Assembly: GCF_003018255.1 (NCBI RefSeq)
Contig: NZ_CP027440.1
Source: Escherichia coli
Lineage (GTDB): Bacteria; Pseudomonadota; Gammaproteobacteria; Enterobacterales; Enterobacteriaceae
Length of the DNA: 64,000 bases
Strand: one strand, 5' to 3'
The notes beneath the pieces are model-generated. The model did no database searches, was not told the origin of the DNA, and saw only the letters and a program-made list of their open reading frames with translations. Position 1 is the first letter of the stretch; the number at the start of each line of letters is the position of its first letter. This document shows, piece by piece, positions 7,788 through 49,078 of the stretch. The translations under genes and the position numbers were made by a program.

Positions 7788-9185
7788 TTACCCCTTAAAC
7801 GTTAACCACGGTCGAAATCTGACCGCTGGCTGAATTAATCCGGCTTCTTGTTGGGCTTCGATAACCGGACCAATATCTTTATAAGCCGCTGGCGCTTCTT
7901 CAAAACGTCGTTCTTCGCGCAATGTGACGCATTGCCACGGCAGCGTTGACTCTTCAGTCGCGCGTGAGCGCATGGCCTGCCGACGCTGGCTGCGTCCTGC
8001 TCCGTGACTGCATGACCACAGCCACTCCGGGTTGCCGCAACCTACCGCAAGCCACGAATAATCGCCCATTGAACCGGGGATTAACGCCAGATTGCCCACT
8101 CGTGCCGGTGTTGCGCCTTTGCGATGAATATTCATTTCATGCTCGCGAAGGATGATGTTATGTGGCACATCCACCACCAGATGCGAATTGTCCTGATGAA
8201 AGAGATTGGCAAGACATACGCGCACCATTTCGGCAATTGTGACGCGATTTAACCATGCGTAACGCGCCGCCATTCCTATCGCTTGTAGATATTCCTCCGC
8301 CAGTCCGCCTGCCAGACCATATAACCCGCTTTGTGGATGTTTATGTCCGGTGGGCCATTCAGCACGGGCGCGATCCATCCAGCGTCTTCCGACGTAAAAG
8401 CCAACATCTCGCGATCCACTGTGGATCATCACCACAATATCGCCTGTTTTCAGCCCTTGTTGCCAGGCTACATGGCGATCAACCACGCTATCAACGACCT
8501 GAAGTTCAATAAAATGATTACCTGAACCCGGCGTACCCAGACAAGGATCGCGGAGTAATGCGCGGTCCGTTGCCTGCAGGGCGGGTGGGGCATAACGCGA
8601 ATGACTGTTATGCTCGTTAAGCCCAATGCAGCGGTCAATCTCTTGTACCATTCGGGGGATATTCGTGCGTATCCAGAGACCTTCTGATGGCAAGGTCGAC
8701 ACGCAATCTGCCGGTCCGCCATCAAAAAGCGCGGTGAACGCCTGTGCGGATAACGGAACATCGCGCTCATTTTGCAGTAGCACTTGCGTTAACCGCTGAG
8801 CGATGACGTCTTTATGCGCTTCGGCTTGCTCAAGTGTTAATCCGGTCGTCAGCAGCCGCATGCCACAAGAAATATCGGTGCCGATGGCGGCGGGAATGAC
8901 TAAATCCGGCGTTGAGGCCACCACCGCGCCAACGGGGACGCCATTGCCGGGATGAAAATCTGGCGTCGCGCACGTCTGGCGCACATAACCTGGGTGGTCT
9001 GGTAGCTTCACTTCTGCAAAATCAAGCAGTTGTGTTACTGCTTTTTCTTCCAGCGGCAGTTCGTCCGGCAGCAGTACGCGGGCACTGGCACCTGATGGAC
9101 GAGATAATGAAACAATATTGTTGGCGCGGGAAAGTTGGATCCCTTTGCGCAGAAAGGCTTTATCAAGCCTTGAAAGATGATGCAT
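7788..9185 (-). CDS. RtcB-family RNA 3'-phosphate ligase paralogue (orphan, no rtcA/rtcR/prfH neighbour)
   Basis: 465-aa ORF; blocks IPAAIGTDISCGM, GSGNHFIELQ, MIHSGSRDVG, ALIPGSMGDYS, CSHGAGRS and C-terminal AYKDIGPV...KG align by eye to E. coli RtcB; about 29-residue N-terminal extension; ATG at 9185. Confidence 0.85.
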   Translation of the reverse strand: MHHLSRLDKAFLRKGIQLSRANNIVSLSRPSGASARVLLPDELPLEEKAVTQLLDFAEVKLPDHPGYVRQTCATPDFHPGNGVPVGAVVASTPDLVIPAAIGTDISCGMRLLTTGLTLEQAEAHKDVIAQRLTQVLLQNERDVPLSAQAFTALFDGGPADCVSTLPSEGLWIRTNIPRMVQEIDRCIGLNEHNSHSRYAPPALQATDRALLRDPCLGTPGSGNHFIELQVVDSVVDRHVAWQQGLKTGDIVVMIHSGSRDVGFYVGRRWMDRARAEWPTGHKHPQSGLYGLAGGLAEEYLQAIGMAARYAWLNRVTIAEMVRVCLANLFHQDNSHLVVDVPHNIILREHEMNIHRKGATPARVGNLALIPGSMGDYSWLAVGCGNPEWLWSCSHGAGRSQRRQAMRSRATEESTLPWQCVTLREERRFEEAPAAYKDIGPVIEAQQEAGLIQPAVRFRPWLTFKG

Positions 9186-9436
9186 AACGCTGTCCTGAAA
9201 TATAGACGTTAAACAACCCCCTGTATGGCGAGGGTAATTTTGTCTTTCCGGTCAGCAGCCAGCAAAAGGGAAAGAAAACGCGCGTAGTGTATGTGGCGAT
9301 AGCAAGTGTTACAAGTGGTAAATCTGGCTTATTGTTAAAGAGGAATTATCTTTTGTGAAGTCTTTTAAGGCCATGACTCATTCAATTTAACCGGACATAG
9401 ATAATATATAACATAGGGTATCTAAATTTATCATTG

Positions 9437-9575
9437 TATACTTGTCATAATTCAAGTTGCATGTGCTGCATCGATGTTCGCTCACCCAGGTCACTTACTT
9501 ATGTAAGCTTCTGGAAATTCATTATTTGTTCCCTTCCTGCAACTTGACTTATTTAGAGTATATTCATGTATACAC
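9437..9575. repeat. ERIC (IRU) repetitive element
   Basis: Contains cgctcaccc.ggtcacttacttatgtaagct (reverse complement of the ERIC2/ERIC1R primer regions) with inverted termini tgtatac...gtataca; near-identical to the copy at 46501-46630. Confidence 0.8.
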
Positions 9576-10060
9576 ATCGAGATTTCAGCCAGCAGACGCG
9601 CATCTGGCGTGCCGTGGCGGATCTGTAGCGGTTTTTGCAGAGTTTCGGTGAGGCGACGGCAAGCTGCAACGCCGTGGTTAACGACCGGTAAACCGTTCAG
9701 TTTAGAGGTTCCGGCTTCGATGGATTTTTTAATCCCTACAGCCGCTTCTTCGTACCGATTCAGACGGGTATATGCATCGATGGTGCTCGGCAGCAGATCG
9801 CACTCTTCTTGTAGTGTTTTCAGTAGTTCGATGTGTTCGTCCATCAGCGCCACACCTGCGCGCGGTTGGCTAAGGGTTTTACCTTCCTTGTCTGCTTTCA
9901 ACAGCGCAAGAGAGAAGCGTTTATGCTCAGGAATGGTTTGTTGGTATTTAACGCCATCTTCAAAGTTTTCAACATCCTTGCCGGTTTCCCAGGTTTTCAG
10001 TACCTGTTGCCGCTCGGTCATGAATTCGTCATGGGTTAATTTCTTATTTCGAAGTTCCAT
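9491..10060 (-). pseudogene. glmE: glutamate mutase E subunit (methylaspartate mutase epsilon), truncated
   Basis: First about 160 aa ([50 protein letters not shown]) match GlmE/MutE; homology ends near 9580 where the frame runs into the ERIC element and stops; full-length GlmE is about 480 aa. Confidence 0.75.
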
Positions 10061-10078
10061 TGATTGCAGCCTTAATTG

Positions 10079-11467
10079 TTATAGGGTTAAGCATTGAATA
10101 CTGGTGCGCGCGGCGGCCAGCGGATCGACTCTGGCGACGTTTGCCAGCAGTGGTAATAGCCCCCGGGAATCGCGGTAATATTCAAATTCGGTCGGTAAGA
10201 GAATGCGTTTACCGTCGTCGTTTAACTCGCGGTATTTCAACCAGTGATGCATATCGAACTGACTGGCACGCGAGAGCCATCCGCCGGATCCGACGACTTT
10301 ACGCACGGTTGTCAGGTCACGTCCCATCTGTAAATCGACATTGCCGACGCAGGTGCAGACCTCTTTTTTGGTGCCCGCATGTCTTTCGGTGGCATAACCC
10401 ACACACAGTCCGGCCAGGACGGTATCGAAATATTTTTCTTCTGCATTCGCGGGTAAGTAGTCGGGATGAGCGACTAGATGACGGAGGTAATGATAAAAAG
10501 CGTCCAGCTGTGCGGGTTGCTGAGCAAAATTCACATTGACTAACTCTTTCGCACTTTCACCAACCACCATTGCCGAGACGCGCATTCCCAGATCTCCTTC
10601 CACCGTCCGTTTTACGAAGGGTTCCGGTACGCCATGTAAAACAGTGTCGGGCGAGAGCGTGTTGGCACTGGCGGAATAGACATCGGTGGTTGCGCCACCC
10701 ATGTCGATCAGCATGAACTCTTTCCAGCTGTGATCGACATTACTGATTGCCTTAACCAGTTCAAAGACTGTCCACGGTGTCGGCATTGGTTCTTCGCCTG
10801 TTTTATCAACAACGACATCCAGCCCTTTCCCTTTAACGATGCGTTTAAGGAATATGTCGCAGATAGCCTGGCGTGCAGCTAAAGGGTTCGGATGGTCAAG
10901 ATCGGGCAGAACGTTGTCGACGATGGTCAGGTCTTTATGCCCGAGGATCTCCTGCACCTCGTCCTGAATATCCCGGTTTCCGGCATAAATAATGGCGCAG
11001 TCGAGTTTGGATTCTGCCAACACACGGGCGTTATTCAGTCCGTAGCTTTCTTCTCCGCCATCGGTGCCGCCGGTGAACAAGAGAATATCGGGCTGCGTTT
11101 CTTCCAGTGCCTGGATATCACGGCGGTTCAGCTTGTAGGCGTAAGATTGCGCAATTTTAGCACCCGCAGAGTGAGCGGTTACTTTCGCGGTTTCCAGGGT
11201 GATAGAAGGCACCAATCCCATTGCGGCAACCGCCAGCCCACCTTTGGCAGAGGAGGAATACTTCAATGCAACCTCACCACTGTTTAACAGGGGGAGGGCA
11301 TCATCTACGTTTAACACCTGGTCCAGGCTGGAGAAAAACCCCTTCGCCAGATGATGGGTGGTGGTTGGGGTCAGTACGTGGTTAACCAACGTTAACGCGT
11401 CCCCCTCCCGGGCGAAGAGGGCTGCTTTGGTCCACGTCGATCCAATATCGACAGAGACGATTTGCAT
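10079..11467 (-). CDS. glmL: glutamate mutase accessory protein GlmL/MutL (actin/Hsp70-like fold)
   Basis: 462-aa [21 protein letters not shown], between glmS and glmE as in clostridial mut operons; start overlaps glmS stop. Confidence 0.75.
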   Translation of the reverse strand: MQIVSVDIGSTWTKAALFAREGDALTLVNHVLTPTTTHHLAKGFFSSLDQVLNVDDALPLLNSGEVALKYSSSAKGGLAVAAMGLVPSITLETAKVTAHSAGAKIAQSYAYKLNRRDIQALEETQPDILLFTGGTDGGEESYGLNNARVLAESKLDCAIIYAGNRDIQDEVQEILGHKDLTIVDNVLPDLDHPNPLAARQAICDIFLKRIVKGKGLDVVVDKTGEEPMPTPWTVFELVKAISNVDHSWKEFMLIDMGGATTDVYSASANTLSPDTVLHGVPEPFVKRTVEGDLGMRVSAMVVGESAKELVNVNFAQQPAQLDAFYHYLRHLVAHPDYLPANAEEKYFDTVLAGLCVGYATERHAGTKKEVCTCVGNVDLQMGRDLTTVRKVVGSGGWLSRASQFDMHHWLKYRELNDDGKRILLPTEFEYYRDSRGLLPLLANVARVDPLAAARTSIQCLTL

Positions 11468-11916
11468 CAGATTGCCTCTTCAAGAATACGAGTATCAACG
11501 TCATGACGTTGGTTGATATCGTGGGCCATCAGCTGACAAACATCTTCTAAGTCATGACTTGGGGCAAAGACGCGATCAAATCCCATCTCTTTGAATTTGG
11601 TTTCCACGTCAGCGAAGTCATGTTTTCCGACCACCAGGTTACCGCCCACATAGAGCAGGATGTCCCCCAGTCCACGCTCGATGCAGCGTTCGCGCATGCC
11701 CAGACAGTCGATATCGCCATGCCCATAGATAGAGGAGACGACAATCGCGTCAGCACCAGTTTCAATGGCAGCATCAATATATTCGTCCTGGCTGACCATT
11801 ACGCCCAGATTAATAACTCTGAAGTCATGGTTGCTAAAAACGCGGTCCAGAACTTTATTGCCTACTGCATGGCAGTCCGCGCCAATAACGCCAATCACAA
11901 GTGTTGCTTTCTTCAT
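11467..11916 (-). CDS. glmS: glutamate mutase S subunit (B12-binding sigma subunit)
   Basis: 149 aa from [24 protein letters not shown] with DxHxxG cobalamin-binding motif; GGA-type SD upstream of ATG at 11916 (the track ORF extends further 5'). Confidence 0.82.
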
Positions 11917-12463
11917 GGGTAATCCTTTGTAAGACAGAGAGTAAAATAAGTTACACACGTCGTATTTATGGCCGCTCATAACGGCACAGGTTTAATATCA
12001 CAGGAGTGTCTTTATCTGACCGTAATGTTGCAATTGATCTATTTTCAAAATGTCTTTCGGGAAATGATTGTTTAAAGTGTGTTTTCAAATTCTCATGTTA
12101 ATTCAGTGTGTTATGTCAACTAATGTCATGAATGTTAAATTTTTAAAATTAACTTGATTTGATGTATTGAGATAATTGTGATCAACTTCTAATTTGCATT
12201 TTAGTGATATGGGGTTAGCCATGAGTAAATGCATTTCATAAAAGTTAAGTCGAATTTCACTGCAATTCATCTCTGCTTAATGTAAAAATAATGTTGAAAA
12301 TAACAAATAATTAATGATTCATGCGAATTATGACCTTTGTTAGCTCTTTTGATTTTTCGTAAAAAAGAAAAGTACATGAAGGTGCTACCAGTACGAGAAA
12401 CGTTAATCAAAAGTTTTATTACGTCTGGCAATAACGCAGGCCATTTTTCGCGACAGGAGGGAT

Positions 12464-12886
12464 TTAATCAGTATAATCCTCATACAATAGGTCAGGATTT
12501 ACAGAACCGTTAACGGGGTTTTGGTGTTGAAATTTAGAAATGGTGGAGTCAATCAATGAAGACAGTATCGAAAAAATGACTGTGTCAGAATTAATTTCAA
12601 TTAATCCTTCTCGTTGTTGACCAAAAAAGATATTTATCTTGATTTCATTTGTACTACGGAAATCAATATGTAGTAATTTTTGATCGCTGAGATTTTCTGT
12701 TTCATAAATGTTTTTGGCGATAGTCGGATGTATTGATGCCAGACATCTGCTCAGATAAGCCAGATCCTTTAGGGAACACCCCGCTGAGTAGAGGATGTCA
12801 GAGAATTTTTGTGTGTCAACTGTTGGCTCTGAAGCGTATGTTGCATTGACTGGAAGGGTGTTGAAGGAGATTTGAGATGGGATCAT
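12464..12886 (-). CDS. hypothetical protein, 140 aa, no recognisable family
   Basis: Uninterrupted ORF in a strongly AT-rich block, co-directional with and 80 bp downstream of the 314-aa ORF; weak SD; no motif I can identify. Confidence 0.5.
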   Translation of the reverse strand: MIPSQISFNTLPVNATYASEPTVDTQKFSDILYSAGCSLKDLAYLSRCLASIHPTIAKNIYETENLSDQKLLHIDFRSTNEIKINIFFGQQREGLIEINSDTVIFSILSSLIDSTISKFQHQNPVNGSVNPDLLYEDYTD

Positions 12887-12966
12887 TATTTAAATCTTTC
12901 CGTGAGTAATAAAAATTAATCCCCGGGCATTGTTTAGTAATATTTGCCACAGGGGATATATAAAAA

Positions 12967-13911
12967 TTAAAGTATTTGATTGGCATCGGTTAACTGATCA
13001 ATAACCAGTGCCAGATTGGTAAACATTTTGAAAAAGCGATACTGGCTCGGAATATCTCTTTCAAAGACGAAACATTCAATGTCATTGTTTGAAAAATAAA
13101 GGACTAGTGATGCTGATTCGTCAGGAAAAATATGGAAATATATCTGGTTACCAGAAGGAGGATAGTCCAGAAGAAGGGTATCTTTGCCCGTCACATACCT
13201 GTTGTGGTCGTGGATGCTGCGCTCACACTTCATCAGAGGTGTCATGATACTCATGTATTCATCTGATGTTAATATATTAAAATCACCATCCATTTTAAAG
13301 AAACGATAAAGTAACAGTACATCCTCTTGCGTAACCGGTTCGTTTGTTTTTAGAGGGAAATAAGTGGGAACCAGAAGATGAGGTTCTAATCTATTTTGTT
13401 GAGCGCTATAACTAAATTTGAACATAAATTCCGGATCGCTCATCAATTGAGCGACATAATTATGCCTGGCTTCAAAAATTTTAACTTTTATCAGGTTAAA
13501 TAAGTCTGTTTCGTCATCCTGTATTAAAAGACATTGGCCATAGCAGCCAGGCTTTTTTTCATTATAAGCAGAAACGGTTATTCTGTCAGGAGTGTCAACG
13601 TTATATCCAAAAGCCAGATAGTGACCTTCCTCATCGAGATTTGTTTCCAGGTTATTTAAATTCATCACATGAAGTGTTTGCAATGCTGATTCAATGAGCT
13701 GTTGACTCTCTGAGGTAAATGTTTCGCGCTGCGTTGTATAAAGTGTATCGATTCCAACGACTATCCGATGTGGGTCAAGGATGGCGGCAATCATCTTTAT
13801 TACCTGCACAGTCATGGGTGATGTCATTGATTCTTTATCTGTTTTTAGAGGATCATTAGATGGCCAACCTGAGAAGCGATTGACAGCAGAACTGATAATA
13901 TCAGGACTCAT
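12967..13911 (-). CDS. hypothetical protein, 314 aa, no recognisable family
   Basis: Long ORF in AT-rich DNA with GAGG SD 9 nt upstream of ATG at 13911; no long hydrophobic segments, no P-loop or other motif recognised. Confidence 0.6.
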   Translation of the reverse strand: MSPDIISSAVNRFSGWPSNDPLKTDKESMTSPMTVQVIKMIAAILDPHRIVVGIDTLYTTQRETFTSESQQLIESALQTLHVMNLNNLETNLDEEGHYLAFGYNVDTPDRITVSAYNEKKPGCYGQCLLIQDDETDLFNLIKVKIFEARHNYVAQLMSDPEFMFKFSYSAQQNRLEPHLLVPTYFPLKTNEPVTQEDVLLLYRFFKMDGDFNILTSDEYMSIMTPLMKCERSIHDHNRYVTGKDTLLLDYPPSGNQIYFHIFPDESASLVLYFSNNDIECFVFERDIPSQYRFFKMFTNLALVIDQLTDANQIL

Positions 13912-28012: not shown

Positions 28013-28126
28013 GACGAGTCATCCCTTAATTATTCTCACTTAACTTTATGACATCATACTGCTTTTAGAAGGGAAAAATTAAAAGGGAGAGACTCCGCTC
28101 TCCCATTATTGGCTATTTTCGCAGGG

Positions 28127-42801: not shown

Positions 42802-43755
42802 TTAACCTATCTCCTGTAACGCATGTCTCTGGCGTTCGACGATATTGGTCCACAAATTGTCTTTATCGTCAGTCCACAAATTAATCAGCAAGGCAAAAAA
42901 GCGTTCAGCTGCCGGAGAAAGCACGGCATCTTTGCGGCGAATAATCCCCAATGTCCGACGTATAACCGGTTCCACCAGCGGGATACCAATAATCGAAGAA
43001 TAGGGCGCATGGGGCATTGCCAGACCAGGAAGCGCCGAAATCCCCAGTCCCGCCTCCACCAGCCCTAATGACGTCGAAAGATGACGCACTTCGTAAAACC
43101 AGTCCAGCTTCCAGGGCTTGTCGGCTAGCTGTTGTTCTATCAATAGTCGGTTGCCGCTGGAGGAGCGTACGCCAATCATTTTGTAACCCACTAACTCCTG
43201 CCATTCTACAAGCTGCTTTTTGGCCAATGGATGGTCACGCCGACAGGCCAGCACGAACGGCTCGTTGACCAGTGGGGTAAAATCAATGGATGAATTTGTG
43301 ACGTTGTTCATGTTTATGCCAAAGTCTGATTCGTTACACAGCACCGATTCCATGCAATTATTCGTGCCTTGTTCCAGAATCCGCACTTTAATATTGGGAT
43401 ACAGCTCATTAAATTTACCGATTGCCAGCGGTAAAAAATAAAATACTGCGGTCGGAATACACGCTAACGTCACCATACCACGATGATAAGCATTCATATC
43501 ACGAATATTAAAAAGCGTTTCATCGAATTTTTTTATTAATTCCCGCGCCTCCGGGAGCAACCTTTTTCCTGCTTTTGTTAACGTAACCTTGCGAGTTGTA
43601 CGCTCAAATAGTTGAATGTGTAAATCTTCCTCCATCTTTTTTATTCTTCGCGTTAATGCAGGTTGCGTAATATTGAGTAATTTAGCAGCATTGTTAAATG
43701 AACTGGACTCTGCCAGTATGACAAATGCCTTCATACTTGATAATTCATGCTTCAT
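42802..43755 (-). CDS. ybhD: LysR-family transcription regulator
   Basis: MKHELSSMKAFVILAESSSFNNAAKLLNITQPALTRRIKKMEE HTH, 317 aa; divergent from ybhH. Confidence 0.9.
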   Translation of the reverse strand: MKHELSSMKAFVILAESSSFNNAAKLLNITQPALTRRIKKMEEDLHIQLFERTTRKVTLTKAGKRLLPEARELIKKFDETLFNIRDMNAYHRGMVTLACIPTAVFYFLPLAIGKFNELYPNIKVRILEQGTNNCMESVLCNESDFGINMNNVTNSSIDFTPLVNEPFVLACRRDHPLAKKQLVEWQELVGYKMIGVRSSSGNRLLIEQQLADKPWKLDWFYEVRHLSTSLGLVEAGLGISALPGLAMPHAPYSSIIGIPLVEPVIRRTLGIIRRKDAVLSPAAERFFALLINLWTDDKDNLWTNIVERQRHALQEIG

Positions 43756-43938
43756 TATTACTCCGGAAAATGGAAGCGACGATTTTGGGTGACTGGCAGT
43801 TAAAAATTTTACCTGCATTTAGCCAACTTAAATTAATGAAAAAATGTTATTAATCGTTGAGCTAAAGTCATTAGAGATGCTTTGCCCTTAATGTAACCAT
43901 ATCGCAATAAGTTATGTTTTTAAATTGAGGGCATTATT

Positions 43939-44991
43939 ATGAAAAAAATACCCTGCGTGATGATGCGAGGTGGAACCTCGAGGGGCGCGTTCCTGTTAGC
44001 GGAACATCTACCCGAAGATCAAACGCAGCGCGATAAAATATTGATGGCAATTATGGGTTCCGGTAACGATCTGGAAATTGACGGTATTGGCGGCGGTAAT
44101 CCGCTGACCAGTAAAGTCGCCATTATTAGCCGCTCCAGCGATCCGCGTGCAGATGTCGATTATCTGTTTGCTCAAGTTATCGTCCATGAGCAACGTGTCG
44201 ATACCACGCCTAACTGCGGCAATATGCTGTCTGGCGTTGGGGCATTCGCCATTGAAAATGGTTTGATTGCAGCGACTTCGCCAGTTACCCGCGTACGTAT
44301 CCGCAACGTCAATACGGGTACGTTTATCGAAGCTGATGTGCAAACGCCAAATGGTGTTGTCGAGTACGAGGGTAGCGCCAGAATTGACGGCGTACCGGGT
44401 ACTGCCGCACCGGTTGCGCTCACTTTCCTGAATGCCGCCGGAACGAAAACCGGAAAAGTCTTCCCGACGGATAATCAGATTGATTATTTTGACGATGTCC
44501 CGGTGACCTGTATCGATATGGCGATGCCAGTTGTCATTATTCCTGCTGAATATCTGGGAAAAACAGGCTATGAATTACCGGCAGAGCTGGATGCCGACAA
44601 AGCATTATTAGCCAGCATTGAATCTATCCGTCTACAAGCGGGTAAAGCAATGGGCTTAGGCGATGTCAGTAATATGGTTATCCCTAAACCTGTACTTATT
44701 TCTCCAGCGCAGAAAGGCGGGGCAATTAATGTGCGTTATTTTATGCCGCATTCTTGCCATCGCGCTTTGGCGATAACCGGTGCTATTGCTATTTCCTGTA
44801 GTTGTGCATTGGAAGGCACCGTCACCCGACAAATCGTCCCTTCTGTAGGATACGGCAATATCAATATTGAACACCCCAGTGGTGCGCTCGACGTTCATTT
44901 AAGTAATGAAGGTCAGGATGCCACGACGTTACGCGCATCTGTTATTCGGACGACAAGAAAAATATTTTCCGGTGAAGTTTATCTTCCCTGA
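43939..44991 (+). CDS. ybhH: PrpF/AcnD-accessory-family isomerase
   Basis: 350-aa ORF MKKIPCVMMRGGTSRGAFL. Confidence 0.9.
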   Translation: MKKIPCVMMRGGTSRGAFLLAEHLPEDQTQRDKILMAIMGSGNDLEIDGIGGGNPLTSKVAIISRSSDPRADVDYLFAQVIVHEQRVDTTPNCGNMLSGVGAFAIENGLIAATSPVTRVRIRNVNTGTFIEADVQTPNGVVEYEGSARIDGVPGTAAPVALTFLNAAGTKTGKVFPTDNQIDYFDDVPVTCIDMAMPVVIIPAEYLGKTGYELPAELDADKALLASIESIRLQAGKAMGLGDVSNMVIPKPVLISPAQKGGAINVRYFMPHSCHRALAITGAIAISCSCALEGTVTRQIVPSVGYGNINIEHPSGALDVHLSNEGQDATTLRASVIRTTRKIFSGEVYLP

Positions 44992-45066
44992 AAAATTTTG
45001 TTGTCGTGATAATGACAATCAATAAAGGAATTCTGTATGAGTCATACAGAAAGAACAGGATATTAA

Positions 45067-46500
45067 ATGAATAAAAAATCGTTATGGAAGCTAATTCTGA
45101 TATTAGCGATCCCATGTATTATTGGCTTTATGCCAGCTCCGGCAGGATTAAGCGAACTGGCGTGGGTGCTTTTTGGTATTTACCTGGCGGCCATTGTGGG
45201 GCTGGTTATCAAGCCTTTCCCGGAACCTGTCGTACTGTTAATTGCCGTCGCCGCATCGATGGTAGTGGTGGGTAACTTATCAGGTGGGGAATTTAAAACC
45301 ACCGCCGTATTAAGCGGTTACTCTTCCGGTACCACCTGGCTGGTGTTTTCTGCGTTTACTTTAAGCGCCGCGTTTGTAACCACAGGCTTAGGTAAACGTA
45401 TTGCCTATCTGCTGATTGGTAAAATTGGTAGCACTACCCTGGGTCTGGGTTACGTTACGGTATTTCTCGATCTGGTACTGGCTCCGGCAACACCGTCTAA
45501 CACCGCGCGTGCGGGCGGCATCGTGTTACCGATCATCAACAGCGTGGCAGTGGCTTTGGGATCAGAACCGGAAAAAAGTCCGCGTCGTGTTGGACATTAC
45601 CTGATGATGTCCATTTACATGGTCACTAAAACCACCAGCTATATGTTCTTTACCGCAATGGCGGGGAACATTCTGGCGCTGAAAATGATCAACGACATTC
45701 TGCACCTGCAAATTAGCTGGGGTGGATGGGCGCTGGCCGCTGGATTGCCGGGTATCATTATGCTGCTGGTCACCCCGCTGGTGATTTACACCATGTATCC
45801 GCCAGAAATTAAGAAGGTGGATAACAAAACCATCGCCAAAGCGGGCCTTGCCGAACTGGGACCGATGAAAATCCGCGAAAAAATGCTGCTCGGTGTCTTC
45901 GTGCTGGCGCTGCTGGGCTGGATTTTCAGTAAGTCACTGGGGGTTGATGAATCCACCGTGGCAATCGTTGTTATGGCGACTATGCTGCTGCTGGGTATCG
46001 TTACCTGGGAAGACGTGGTTAAAAATAAAGGCGGCTGGAATACCTTAATCTGGTACGGCGGTATTATCGGCTTAAGCTCCTTATTATCGAAAGTTAAATT
46101 CTTTGAATGGTTAGCTGAAGTCTTTAAAAATAACCTGGCATTTGATGGTCACGGTAACGTTGCTTTCTTCGTTATTATTTTCCTCAGCATCATCGTGCGT
46201 TATTTCTTCGCTTCCGGTAGTGCCTATATCGTTGCTATGTTACCTGTATTTGCCATGCTGGCGAACGTCTCCGGCGCACCGTTAATGTTAACCGCGCTGG
46301 CACTGTTGTTCTCTAACTCCTATGGCGGCATGGTTACTCACTATGGCGGCGCGGCAGGTCCGGTCATCTTTGGCGTGGGTTACAACGATATTAAATCCTG
46401 GTGGTTGGTCGGTGCGGTACTGACGATATTAACCTTCCTGGTGCATATCACCCTCGGCGTGTGGTGGTGGAATATGCTGATCGGCTGGAACATGCTGTAA
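45067..46500 (+). CDS. ybhI: DASS-family anion:sodium symporter (di/tricarboxylate transporter)
   Basis: 477-aa polytopic membrane protein. Confidence 0.9.
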   Translation: MNKKSLWKLILILAIPCIIGFMPAPAGLSELAWVLFGIYLAAIVGLVIKPFPEPVVLLIAVAASMVVVGNLSGGEFKTTAVLSGYSSGTTWLVFSAFTLSAAFVTTGLGKRIAYLLIGKIGSTTLGLGYVTVFLDLVLAPATPSNTARAGGIVLPIINSVAVALGSEPEKSPRRVGHYLMMSIYMVTKTTSYMFFTAMAGNILALKMINDILHLQISWGGWALAAGLPGIIMLLVTPLVIYTMYPPEIKKVDNKTIAKAGLAELGPMKIREKMLLGVFVLALLGWIFSKSLGVDESTVAIVVMATMLLLGIVTWEDVVKNKGGWNTLIWYGGIIGLSSLLSKVKFFEWLAEVFKNNLAFDGHGNVAFFVIIFLSIIVRYFFASGSAYIVAMLPVFAMLANVSGAPLMLTALALLFSNSYGGMVTHYGGAAGPVIFGVGYNDIKSWWLVGAVLTILTFLVHITLGVWWWNMLIGWNML

Positions 46501-46630
46501 ATATACTCGTCATACTTCAAGTTGCATGTGCTGCGTCTGCGTTCGCTCACCCCAGTCACTTACTTATGTAAGCTCCTGGGGATTCACTCGCTTGTCGCCT
46601 TCCTGCAACTCGAATTATTTAGAGTATATC
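46501..46630. repeat. ERIC (IRU) repetitive element
   Basis: atatactcgtcat...cgctcaccccagtcacttacttatgtaagctcctggggattcac...gagtatat; palindromic; matches the ERIC1R/ERIC2 primer regions. Confidence 0.85.
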
Positions 46631-46682
46631 CATTTATTATCTTTCTGCGCACTTCACGGTGCGCAGATATCTGGAGCATTTG

Positions 46683-48943
46683 ATGATCAAGTTATCTGAA
46701 AAAGGCGTGTTTCTCGCCAGCAATAACGAAATAATTGCCGAAGAACATTTCACCGGCGAAATAAAAAAAGAAGAAGCAAAAAAAGGCACTATTGCCTGGT
46801 CTATTCTCTCTTCTCATAATACGTCCGGAAATATGGATAAACTTAAAATTAAGTTTGATTCATTAGCCTCTCACGATATTACCTTTGTTGGTATTGTACA
46901 GACCGCTAAAGCGTCCAGTATGGAACGTTTCCCGCTGCCGTATGTGCTGACCAACTGCCATAACTCACTCTGTGCTGTGGGCGGCACCATTAACGGTGAT
47001 GACCATGTTTTTGGTTTATCGGCGGCCCAGCGTTATGGCGGTATTTTTGTGCCACCGCATATTGCGGTCATCCATCAATATATGCGTGAAATGATGGCGG
47101 CGGCGGCAAAATGATCCTCGGGTCAGACAGCCATACCCGTTACGGTGCGTTAGGGACAATGGCGGTTGGCGAGGGCGGCGGCGAGTTGGTAAAACAGCTG
47201 CTTAATGACACCTGGGATATCGACTATCCGGGCGTGGTTGCGGTGCATCTGACCGGAAAACCTGCGCCGTATGTGGGGCCGCAGGATGTGGCGCTGGCTA
47301 TCATCGGTGCCGTGTTCAAAAACGGTTACGTCAAAAACAAAGTGATGGAGTTCGTAGGTCCCGGTGTTGCAGCGCTCTCTACCGATTTCCGTAACAGCGT
47401 TGACGTGATGACCACTGAAACGACCTGTTTAAGTTCTGTCTGGCAAACCGATGAAGAAGTCCATAACTGGCTGGCGCTGCACGGTCGCGGCCAGGATTAC
47501 TGCCAACTTAACCCTCAACCAATGGCGTACTACGATGGCTGCATCAGCGTTGATTTAAGCGCCATCAAACCAATGATTGCGCTGCCATTCCACCCGAGCA
47601 ACGTGTATGAAATCGACACGCTGAACCAGAACCTGACCGACATTCTGCGTGAGATTGAAATTGAGTCCGAACGCGTGGCGCACGGTAAAGCCAAACTCTC
47701 GCTGCTGGATAAAGTGGAAAATGGTCGCCTGAAAGTGCAGCAGGGGATTATCGCGGGCTGTTCTGGCGGTAACTACGAAAACGTCATCGCGGCGGCGAAT
47801 GCGCTGCGCGGTCAATCCTGCGGCAACGATACCTTCTCATTGGCGGTTTACCCGTCATCACAGCCGGTGTTTATGGATCTCGCCAAAAAAGGTGTGGTAG
47901 CAGATTTGATTGGCGCAGGCGCAATCATCAGAACCGCGTTCTGCGGCCCATGCTTTGGTGCGGGCGATACGCCAATCAACAACGGTTTGAGTATTCGCCA
48001 CACCACGCGTAACTTCCCGAACCGCGAAGGCTCTAAGCCAGCTAATGGGCAGATGTCAGCGGTGGCGTTGATGGACGCTCGTTCTATCGCTGCAACTGCG
48101 GCAAACGGTGGCTATTTAACCTCTGCCAGCGAACTCGATTGCTGGGACAACGTGCCGGAGTACGCCTTCGATGTAACGCCGTATAAAAATCGCGTCTATC
48201 AAGGCTTTGTGAAAGGGGCGACCCAGCAACCGCTGATCTACGGACCGAACATCAAAGACTGGCCGGAATTGGGCGCGCTGACTGACAATATCGTCCTCAA
48301 AGTGTGCTCGAAGATCCTCGACGAAGTCACCACCACCGACGAACTGATTCCTTCCGGTGAAACCTCTTCTTATCGTTCAAATCCGATTGGTCTGGCGGAG
48401 TTTACCCTGTCACGCCGCGATCCCGGTTATGTTGGCAGAAGTAAAGCGACTGCTGAGCTGGAAAATCAGCGTCTGGCGGGGAATGTCAGCGAGCTGACAG
48501 AGGTGTTTGCGCGCATTAAGCAGATTGCTGGTCAGGAGCATATTGATCCGCTGCAAACTGAAATTGGCAGCATGGTCTATGCGGTGAAACCAGGCGATGG
48601 TTCTGCGCGTGAGCAGGCGGCGAGCTGCCAGCGTGTGATTGGCGGTCTGGCGAATATTGCCGAGGAATACGCGACTAAACGCTACCGTTCTAACGTCATC
48701 AACTGGGGGATGTTACCGCTGCAAATGGCGGAAGCACCAACGTTTGAAGTGGGGGATTACATTTACATCCCTGGCATTAAAGCGGCGCTGGATAATCCTG
48801 GAACGACGTTTAAAGGTTATGTGATCCATGAAGATGCACCGGTAACGGAGATTACGCTCTATATGGAAAGTCTGACTGCTGAAGAGCGCGAGATTATCAA
48901 GGCGGGTAGTTTGATTAACTTCAATAAAAACCGTCAGATGTAA
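46683..48943 (+). pseudogene. ybhJ: aconitase-family hydratase YbhJ, interrupted by a frameshift near 47090-47114
   Basis: Two overlapping ORFs in different frames (46683-47114 and 47090/47111-48943); second begins at the aconitase-type motif GSDSHT; span is 2261 bp, not a multiple of 3; shift lies in the atgatggcggcggcggcaaaatg tract. Confidence 0.7.
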
Positions 48944-48957
48944 AAAGCGCCATGTGA

Positions 48958-49078
<121 letters not shown>

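Follow-up and report, generated by a model that had tools for sequence, protein, structure and literature searches.

A predicted aconitate route feeding citrate metabolism in the ybhDHIJ cluster of Escherichia coli and a frameshift in its hydratase gene ybhJ

Introduction

Among characterised systems, the closest in architecture to the ybhDHIJ cluster of Escherichia coli is TarR-TarA-TarB of Bacillus velezensis, in which a LysR gene lies beside an operon for a PrpF-superfamily isomerase and a carboxylate importer; TarA of this LysR-controlled system is a validated aconitate isomerase (PMC11495376). We analysed ybhDHIJ at positions 42802-48943 of a 64-kb stretch of the E. coli chromosome (contig NZ_CP027440.1; hereafter the window), which runs from sucC to ybhN. 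The two systems differ in that TarR is an activator whereas YbhD is repressor-like, in that TarB is an MFS importer whereas YbhI belongs to the DASS family, and in that the tar operon has no hydratase gene. For YbhH, activity on aconitate is a prediction.

The AcnD-PrpF pair of the 2-methylcitrate cycle in Shewanella and Vibrio likewise combines an aconitase-superfamily Fe-S dehydratase with a PrpF-superfamily isomerase that acts on an aconitate-type intermediate (PMC5690661). An earlier interpretation, made from the letters of the window alone (the sequence-only reading), had likened ybhDHIJ to this module. At the superfamily level the resemblance stands, but membership in AcnD and PrpF was rejected on hidden Markov model (HMM) cut-offs: YbhJ scores 63.5 bits with the AcnD model (TIGR02333, cut-off 1419.85), and YbhH 185.6 bits with the PrpF equivalog (TIGR02334, cut-off 440.55). 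No prp genes (prpB, prpC, prpE) occur in the 64-kb neighbourhood.

Two further pathways use relatives of YbhH. LigU/GalD work with LigJ/GalB and LigK/GalC in protocatechuate 4,5-cleavage and gallate degradation, and a LysR regulator is likewise encoded in the gallate cluster. LigU is 45.5% identical to YbhH, and its mutated residues are kept there. The hydratase encoded beside ybhH belongs to the aconitase family, whereas LigJ/GalB is of the amidohydrolase type, and no dioxygenase, amidohydrolase-type hydratase or aldolase gene was found by ybhH in the window, E. albertii, Citrobacter, Edwardsiella, Klebsiella or Intestinirhabdus. In the anaerobic nicotinate fermentation of Eubacterium barkeri, the PrpF-family isomerase Mii is followed by the aconitase-family Fe-S hydratase DmdAB, a two-subunit enzyme whose product passes to a lyase of the isocitrate lyase family; the orthologues of YbhJ sit instead with genes for citrate synthase, isocitrate dehydrogenase or citrate lyase. 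For the transporter, the nearest parallels in E. coli are CitT and TtdT, the citrate/succinate and tartrate/succinate DASS antiporters of anaerobic fermentation. They too are carriers encoded with the converting enzymes under a dedicated regulator, and in Klebsiella the ybh cluster lies beside citrate-fermentation genes, but ybhDHIJ encodes neither a Cit-type nor a Ttd-type lyase or dehydratase.

The genes of the cluster are themselves already known. What is new here is that YbhJ orthologues are widespread in gut anaerobes, beside citrate synthase, isocitrate dehydrogenase or citrate lyase genes. We tentatively favour a role of ybhDHIJ in supplying citrate metabolism from aconitate, which YbhI would take up, YbhH would isomerise by an allylic shift and YbhJ would hydrate, all under repression by YbhD; we regard this role as a good possibility rather than as a probability. 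The four genes are as follows.

42802-43755, minus strand: ybhD, LysR-type regulator of 317 amino acids, intact (from its open reading frame and the annotation of the identical JNE23-011 gene)
43939-44991, plus strand: ybhH, PrpF-superfamily 1,3-allylic isomerase of 350 amino acids, intact
45067-46500, plus strand: ybhI, DASS-family anion transporter of 477 amino acids, intact
46683 (ATG) to 48943 (stop), plus strand: ybhJ, aconitase-family hydratase gene, split by a frameshift

Open reading frames, annotation and HMM matches agree with the sequence-only reading on this outline of a divergent LysR gene, a PrpF-superfamily isomerase, a DASS transporter and an aconitase-family hydratase. Its AcnD/PrpF analogy was imprecise and the consequence that it drew from the frameshift was overstated, as discussed below; the end of ybhD that it placed at 43818 is that of the longest open reading frame and differs from the annotated start. 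At least 80% of the cluster is present in one piece in 5,315 of the 5,426 complete E. coli genomes in RefSeq. The gene order, with ybhD on the minus strand and diverging from ybhH-ybhI-ybhJ, is the same in E. albertii, Citrobacter, Edwardsiella, Klebsiella aerogenes and Intestinirhabdus, and the arrangement is not a product of chance. The exact YbhD, YbhH and YbhI proteins each occur on more than 1000 public contigs, and the genome nearest to the window is that of JNE23-011, with 99.9% identity across all 64 kb.

Results

YbhJ family and the gene contexts of its orthologues

Intact YbhJ (753 amino acids) has Aconitase and Aconitase_C domains and passes its own NCBIfam equivalog, named 'hydratase' (1541 bits vs 641). 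It is closest to PRK07229-type and mitochondrial aconitases, yet it fails both of these models (PRK07229, 343.7 bits vs 612; aconitase_mito, 120 vs 825). A set of 76 orthologues keeps, without exception, the three cysteine ligands and the equivalents of mitochondrial aconitase residues H101, H147, D165, S166, H167, E262, R447, R452, R580, S642 and R644. At the R580 position both the arginine and the spacing are kept in all 76 proteins; in aconitase, this residue binds the third carboxylate. Two distant YbhJ-like proteins (P0207, P0213), which lack the cysteines and the Asp-Ser-His motif, were left out of the orthologue set, and proteins of this type may, judged by these losses, be non-catalytic. 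In some Bacillota (L062, L073) there are two YbhJ paralogues, which share about 48-50% identity.

When one genome per species was scanned, orthologues 67-73% identical over the full length were found in gut anaerobes of other phyla, their hosts including Lachnospiraceae, Enterocloster, Hungatella, Clostridium, Megasphaera, Synergistales, Erysipelotrichaceae and Collinsella. Because identities at this level span phyla, the pattern argues for horizontal spread of YbhJ combined with strong constraint. Orthologues from all gene contexts are 69-89% identical to each other, which places them in one family and not in separate functional subfamilies. The neighbours within 5 kb of the YbhJ orthologue were counted at 52 loci from outside the enterobacteria and Collinsella:

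citrate synthase gene, product passing the NCBIfam cut-off: 13 of 52 loci
isocitrate-dehydrogenase-family gene: 16 of 52 loci
operon of YbhJ with both citrate synthase and the dehydrogenase: 9 of 52 loci
citrate lyase genes (citDEF, at some loci also citC and citG): 8 of 52 loci
at least one of citrate synthase, isocitrate-dehydrogenase-family and citrate lyase genes: 27 of 52 loci
LysR gene: 17 of 52 loci

The Collinsella loci show lineage synteny alone, with no informative neighbours. In two Lachnospiraceae loci (L027, L075), genes for a LysR regulator, a CitMHS-MatC transporter, a PrpF-family isomerase and YbhJ stand together with citrate lyase genes, and a metagenomic relative (L017) has the series LysR, Iso_dh, PrpF and YbhJ-like. 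CitF passes its equivalog (644.7 bits vs 501.45), and the CitE-like neighbour is under the citE cut-off (378.8 vs 443.4). Taken together, the gene contexts of the orthologues point to citrate/cis-aconitate/isocitrate chemistry for the YbhJ family.

A further context is found in K. aerogenes (L098/L099, 3865-20286), where the cluster occupies another chromosomal site than in E. coli. The order there is ybhD-ybhH-ybhI-DASS-ybhJ, an extra DASS gene of 420 amino acids being placed before ybhJ. At a distance of 1.7 kb are oadGAB, the gene of a 2HCT-family carrier and the genes of a DpiAB-like two-component system, with a second LysR gene beside; this region is the citrate-fermentation locus.

The isomerase YbhH and the transporter YbhI

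YbhH of the window differs by two substitutions from the E. coli YbhH of PDB entry 6OTV. It scores 511.7 bits with the NCBIfam model OMA_tautomer (NF033377), above the curated cut-off of 440, and its NCBI name is 4-oxalomesaconate tautomerase. The best match among characterised structures is LigU (E = 1e-92), and Mii shares 44.6% identity with YbhH over the Mii N-terminal domain. Residues K59 and C93 align with the positions changed from Lys to Met and from Cys to Ser in the LigU entries 6P3H and 6P3K. Identity to TarA is about 40% in published tables (PMC11495376), and PrpF is more distant. From these alignments, chemistry of the 1,3-allylic-shift type is well supported for YbhH, which by sequence is nearer to LigU/GalD, Mii and TarA than to PrpF.

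The same tables list homologues from Shigella, E. albertii and Edwardsiella at about 40% identity to TarA, those of Shigella and E. albertii under 'tarA only' (PMC11495376); we take these proteins to be YbhH orthologues. At this distance activity varies widely: TarA homologues with about 39-41% identity ranged from approximately 100% to less than 1% of the activity of TarA (PMC11495376).

YbhI passes the DASS model TIGR00785 with 553.5 bits against 198.6. At E <= 0.001, its solved relatives are only the plant transporters DiT1 and DiT2.1 and one bacterial DASS protein. DiT-type dicarboxylate transporters are exchangers, and by analogy we suggest that YbhI would exchange substrate for product, as CitT and TtdT do. 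On the minus strand inside ybhI (45532-45783), there is a match to the Rfam family Ysr283, a Yersinia antisense RNA, at 41 bits against a gathering score of 58; this match may merely reflect conservation of the coding sequence.

The regulator YbhD and the intergenic regions

YbhD matches LysR-family HMMs. In published RNA-seq data, deletion of ybhD strongly derepressed ybhH, identifying YbhD as a repressor of this gene; the mutant had a weak growth phenotype on L-malate and 238 differentially expressed genes (PMC9068703). An older expression data set places the two genes in opposite groups, ybhD being up and ybhH down. The divergent promoter region between them is 183 bp long and contains the following element.

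43832-43874: candidate YbhD operator, composed of the dyad ATTAAT-N11-ATTAAT (of the T-N11-A form) at 43832-43854 and the block AAGTCATTAG at 43865-43874

The dyad and AAGTCATTAG are the only conserved blocks in an alignment of the ybhD-ybhH intergenic regions of seven Enterobacterales, and together they could form the operator of YbhD. At 43812, near this candidate, the strain has a specific C/A difference from JNE23-011.

The gap between ybhH and ybhI is 75 bp and that between ybhI and ybhJ is 182 bp. Two elements lie in the longer spacer.

46503-46630: ERIC/IRU repeat, with exact matches to the ERIC1R and ERIC2 primers
46645-46666, plus strand: palindrome or hairpin of 22 nucleotides, CTGCGCAC-TTCACG-GTGCGCAG, directly 5' of the ribosome-binding site of ybhJ

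The repeat has the consensus core, the length of about 127 bp, the palindromic fold and the multicopy character of ERIC/IRU elements. ERIC occurs at a median of five copies per E. coli genome, and the long hairpin of the spacer has a z-score of -5.7. The ybhI-ybhJ spacers of Citrobacter and Edwardsiella measure 65-76 bp and are without ERIC, and insertion of the element thus explains the 182-bp gap. A sub-threshold match to the Rfam family V_AS5 lies on the minus strand at this region. The palindrome could act as a hairpin in the RNA or as a site where a protein binds, and Citrobacter youngae has a palindrome of another sequence at the same place. Consensus scans of the ybhI-ybhJ spacer for promoters and terminators gave no matches, a result that fits an operon but is uninformative. 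Co-transcription of ybhHIJ is plausible.

The frameshift in ybhJ

The sequence-only reading claimed a frameshift in ybhJ, and alignment to JNE23-011 confirms that it is present. The lesion and the two resulting reading frames are as follows.

47096-47100, plus strand: frameshift site, where one G is lost from GCGGGCGGCGGC, after 47098, relative to JNE23-011 (ybhJ nucleotide 417, codon 139)
46683-47114, plus strand: ybhJ 5' fragment, 143 codons and TGA, ending in REMMAAAAK before the stop and carrying G79S
47111-48943, plus strand: ybhJ 3' fragment, a 610-codon open reading frame in the original frame, with the Asp-Ser-His motif, the three cluster cysteines and the active-site Arg and Ser

In the alignment to mitochondrial aconitase, the 143-residue half retains the equivalents of H101 and H147, while the Asp-Ser-His motif, the three Fe-S cysteines and the Arg and Ser residues are all in the 610-residue half and are thereby parted from the N-terminal histidines. 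The intact allele has all domains and residues of an aconitase-family [4Fe-4S] hydro-lyase; in this strain they are no longer in a single polypeptide, the split being at codon 139. As judged from this distribution, neither half should be active alone and YbhJ of this strain is most likely non-functional. The TGA of the 5' frame (47112-47114) overlaps the ATG (47111) of the 610-codon frame in an ATGA stop/start, and given this overlap both halves may be translated. Programmed frameshifting was considered as well, since tRNA-Lys, by slipping back one base (-1) on A-AAA-TGA, would return the ribosome to the original frame (...MMAAAAKMILGS...), but the idea is unsupported, resting on the sequence alone, and we mention it only as a caveat. 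A product of frameshifting or re-initiation would be without conserved glycines (G140, in 74 of 76 orthologues, and G142, in 75 of 76; G141 is variable).

A sequencing or assembly error, with the gene intact in the living strain, is improbable. It would fit the loss of a single base from a short G run inside a GGC repeat, and also the absence of the deletion from 5,426 complete RefSeq E. coli genomes, in which the best match to the 131-nucleotide site is 99.2% identical and gapped; the source assembly is outside that RefSeq set. Against an error, the independent Logan read assembly of SRR8931299 has the identical deletion together with the linked change G235A. This change gives G79S, a second damaging substitution, at a glycine that is invariant in the 76 orthologues. 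Across the 64 kb there is, moreover, just one other indel relative to JNE23-011, an extra T at 28116 between zitB and ybgS, and different lesions occur in the same part of ybhJ in other E. coli read sets. An artefact is thereby largely rejected, and the deletion is probably real and private to the lineage. The exact 143- and 610-residue halves are also found in an NCBI contig of 4,892,666 bp. The right-hand 21 kb differ from JNE23-011 at four places, three of them inside the cluster, which is suggestive of local decay and is not statistically significant.

The independent 5' lesions of ybhJ in other E. coli read sets and metagenomes include a deletion of about 116 bp and a deletion of A427. 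The latter is ten bases from the present deletion, creates the same ATGA overlap and was seen on two backgrounds, in one case together with loss of A81. Databases hold many YbhJ proteins truncated at the N- or C-terminus (634, 648, 177 and 517 amino acids), some of them on tens of contigs. Because of these independent lesions and the many shortened proteins, ybhJ appears to have been lost repeatedly. The lesion in this strain is an ordinary private pseudogenisation, of value merely as a natural knock-out and as one case of this recurrent decay.

That the frameshift would disable the pathway, as had been proposed, is not secure. If cis-aconitate is the intermediate, AcnA or AcnB could replace YbhJ, and such redundancy would account for ybhJ as the decaying member of the cluster; the ATGA overlap may in addition allow both halves to be made.

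Other features of the window

Downstream of the cluster, the following repeats separate the convergent genes ybhJ and ybhC.

48946-49078: REP-type repeats, with Rfam naRNA4 matches under the gathering score

At approximately 7788-13911, between mngB and cydA, the window carries an island with an RtcB-family gene, glmS and glmL (glutamate/methylaspartate mutase), a shortened E subunit and two hypothetical genes, as annotated by copying from the near-identical JNE23-011.

Discussion

In the aconitate route that we favour, YbhI would import an unsaturated tricarboxylate, likeliest trans- or cis-aconitate and most plausibly the trans isomer. YbhH would then move the double bond through its conserved Lys/Cys pair, converting trans- to cis-aconitate, and YbhJ, as a [4Fe-4S] aconitase of the type common to gut anaerobes, would hydrate cis-aconitate to citrate or isocitrate. 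The product would go to citrate lyase under anaerobic conditions or to isocitrate dehydrogenase, and YbhD would control the route as a repressor that responds to a ligand. Loss of YbhJ could be tolerated by way of the housekeeping enzymes AcnA and AcnB, provided that cis-aconitate is indeed the intermediate. A ybhJ deletion mutant is sensitive to H2O2, has low NADPH and is rescued by NADPH, like an icd deletion mutant (PMC4054840), and we count its low NADPH in favour of the aconitate route.

Several observations weigh against this route. YbhH is equally near to LigU and to Mii, enzymes with other substrates, and in the YbhJ family the aconitase residues D100, Q72 and N258 are replaced by Cys, His and Val. 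A classical aconitase gene adjoins the YbhJ orthologue in some anaerobes (L036, L062, L064, L066). Blank et al. in 2002 reportedly found that inactivation of ybhJ left the residual aconitase activity of an acnAB mutant unchanged; repression of the gene by YbhD would yield the same null result. YbhJ has been called catalytically inactive (PMC4054840), a label that reportedly goes back to that unchanged activity, and engineered E. coli builds up trans-aconitate aerobically without consuming it (PMC12492653). The Providencia protein AI-79, a probable YbhH orthologue, had less than 1% aconitate isomerase activity (PMC11495376); its primers imply a construct that begins at RGGTSK, about nine N-terminal residues short and with the first conserved strand gone. 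The statement of the sequence-only reading that no substrate is established agrees with our search for a renamed or characterised function of ybhDHIJ, which returned nothing beyond PMC9068703 and PMC4054840, nor anything on the function of 6OTV.

The strongest rival assigns the cluster to a dicarboxylate that carries a branch or a methylene group (itaconate, citraconate, mesaconate or methylitaconate, for example), with YbhH acting like Mii and YbhJ as a dimethylmaleate or citraconate hydratase that makes citramalate or dimethylmalate for a lyase. Besides the identity of YbhH to Mii, which likewise precedes an aconitase-family hydratase in nicotinate fermentation, this proposal draws on the PrpF-family genes adjoining YbhJ orthologues in Bacillota, which are 51-54% identical in the YbhH/Mii comparison, and on one source that labels the Edwardsiella orthologue '2,3-dimethylmalate dehydratase large subunit'; the low score of the CitE-like neighbour also leaves room for a citramalate-type lyase. 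The operons that YbhJ shares with genes for citrate synthase and isocitrate dehydrogenase point instead to citrate/isocitrate chemistry, as does the closeness to citrate-fermentation genes in Klebsiella; the invariant R580 equivalent and the passing score of CitF also speak against this rival, and we consider the dicarboxylate proposal unlikely. Still less likely is a stress or repair module, in which YbhH would return spontaneously formed trans-aconitate to the cycle and YbhJ would serve as back-up aconitase, supplying isocitrate and NADPH when AcnB is damaged. The Tam methyltransferase of E. coli, which acts on trans-aconitate, would fit such a module, and so would the H2O2 and NADPH phenotypes of the ybhJ mutant and a weak RpoS-holoenzyme SELEX peak at ybhD/ybhH (PMC5493296). 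A dedicated transporter gene in the cluster, and a second one in Klebsiella, speak for an external substrate; the family is, moreover, commonest in strict anaerobes, and a new Fe-S aconitase is not obviously resistant to oxidants.

If the database name were right, YbhH would isomerise 4-oxalomesaconate, or a close tricarboxylate derived from lignin or gallate and entering via YbhI, with YbhJ standing in for LigJ/GalB. The OMA_tautomer score, the LigU relationship and the conserved residues all agree with this name, but oxalomesaconate arises by oxygen-dependent ring cleavage and the YbhJ orthologues are concentrated in strict gut anaerobes, with no evident aldolase partner; nor does the window, or the surroundings of the cluster in six genera, hold a gene for a ring-cleavage dioxygenase, LigJ/GalB or LigK/GalC. 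This makes the proposal very unlikely. Lowest in our estimate, and scarcely to be expected, is the role put forward from the growth phenotype of the ybhD deletion mutant, in which the cluster would transport and metabolise L-malate or 2-oxoglutarate as C4/C5 dicarboxylates. DiT1 and DiT2.1, nearest to YbhI among solved structures, would suit it, as would the 35% identity of YbhI to a plant 2-oxoglutarate/malate translocator and the L-malate phenotype of the ybhD mutant (PMC9068703). That phenotype is indirect, however, being that of a regulator mutant with many altered genes, and malate offers nothing for an allylic isomerase or an aconitase-type hydratase to act on.

Within the aconitate route, a bolder proposal is conceivable, though on balance doubtful: YbhJ would be a true third aconitase of E. 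coli, belonging to a type of about 750 amino acids exchanged horizontally among gut bacteria, and ybhDHIJ would be a cryptic, YbhD-repressed system for fermenting (trans-)aconitate from plants or the host via citrate. As part of the same proposal, the gut-bacterial type of YbhJ would serve a citrate synthase/isocitrate dehydrogenase branch as well as citrate-lyase fermentations. The label 'catalytically inactive paralog' would then reflect a lack of expression in laboratory media.

The ybhDHIJ genes are one of the remaining substrate-less metabolic clusters in the best-studied bacterium. The comparative data turn an 'unknown hydratase' into a specific proposal that is testable at low cost, in which an aconitase-type enzyme tied to citrate metabolism works with an isomerase and an importer. 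If the aconitate route is true, the database name '4-oxalomesaconate tautomerase' and the published claim of an inactive YbhJ would both be corrected. Gut Enterobacteriaceae would gain an extra nutrient niche, trans-aconitate being abundant in grasses, and an aconitase family with a wide distribution among gut anaerobes would acquire a function.

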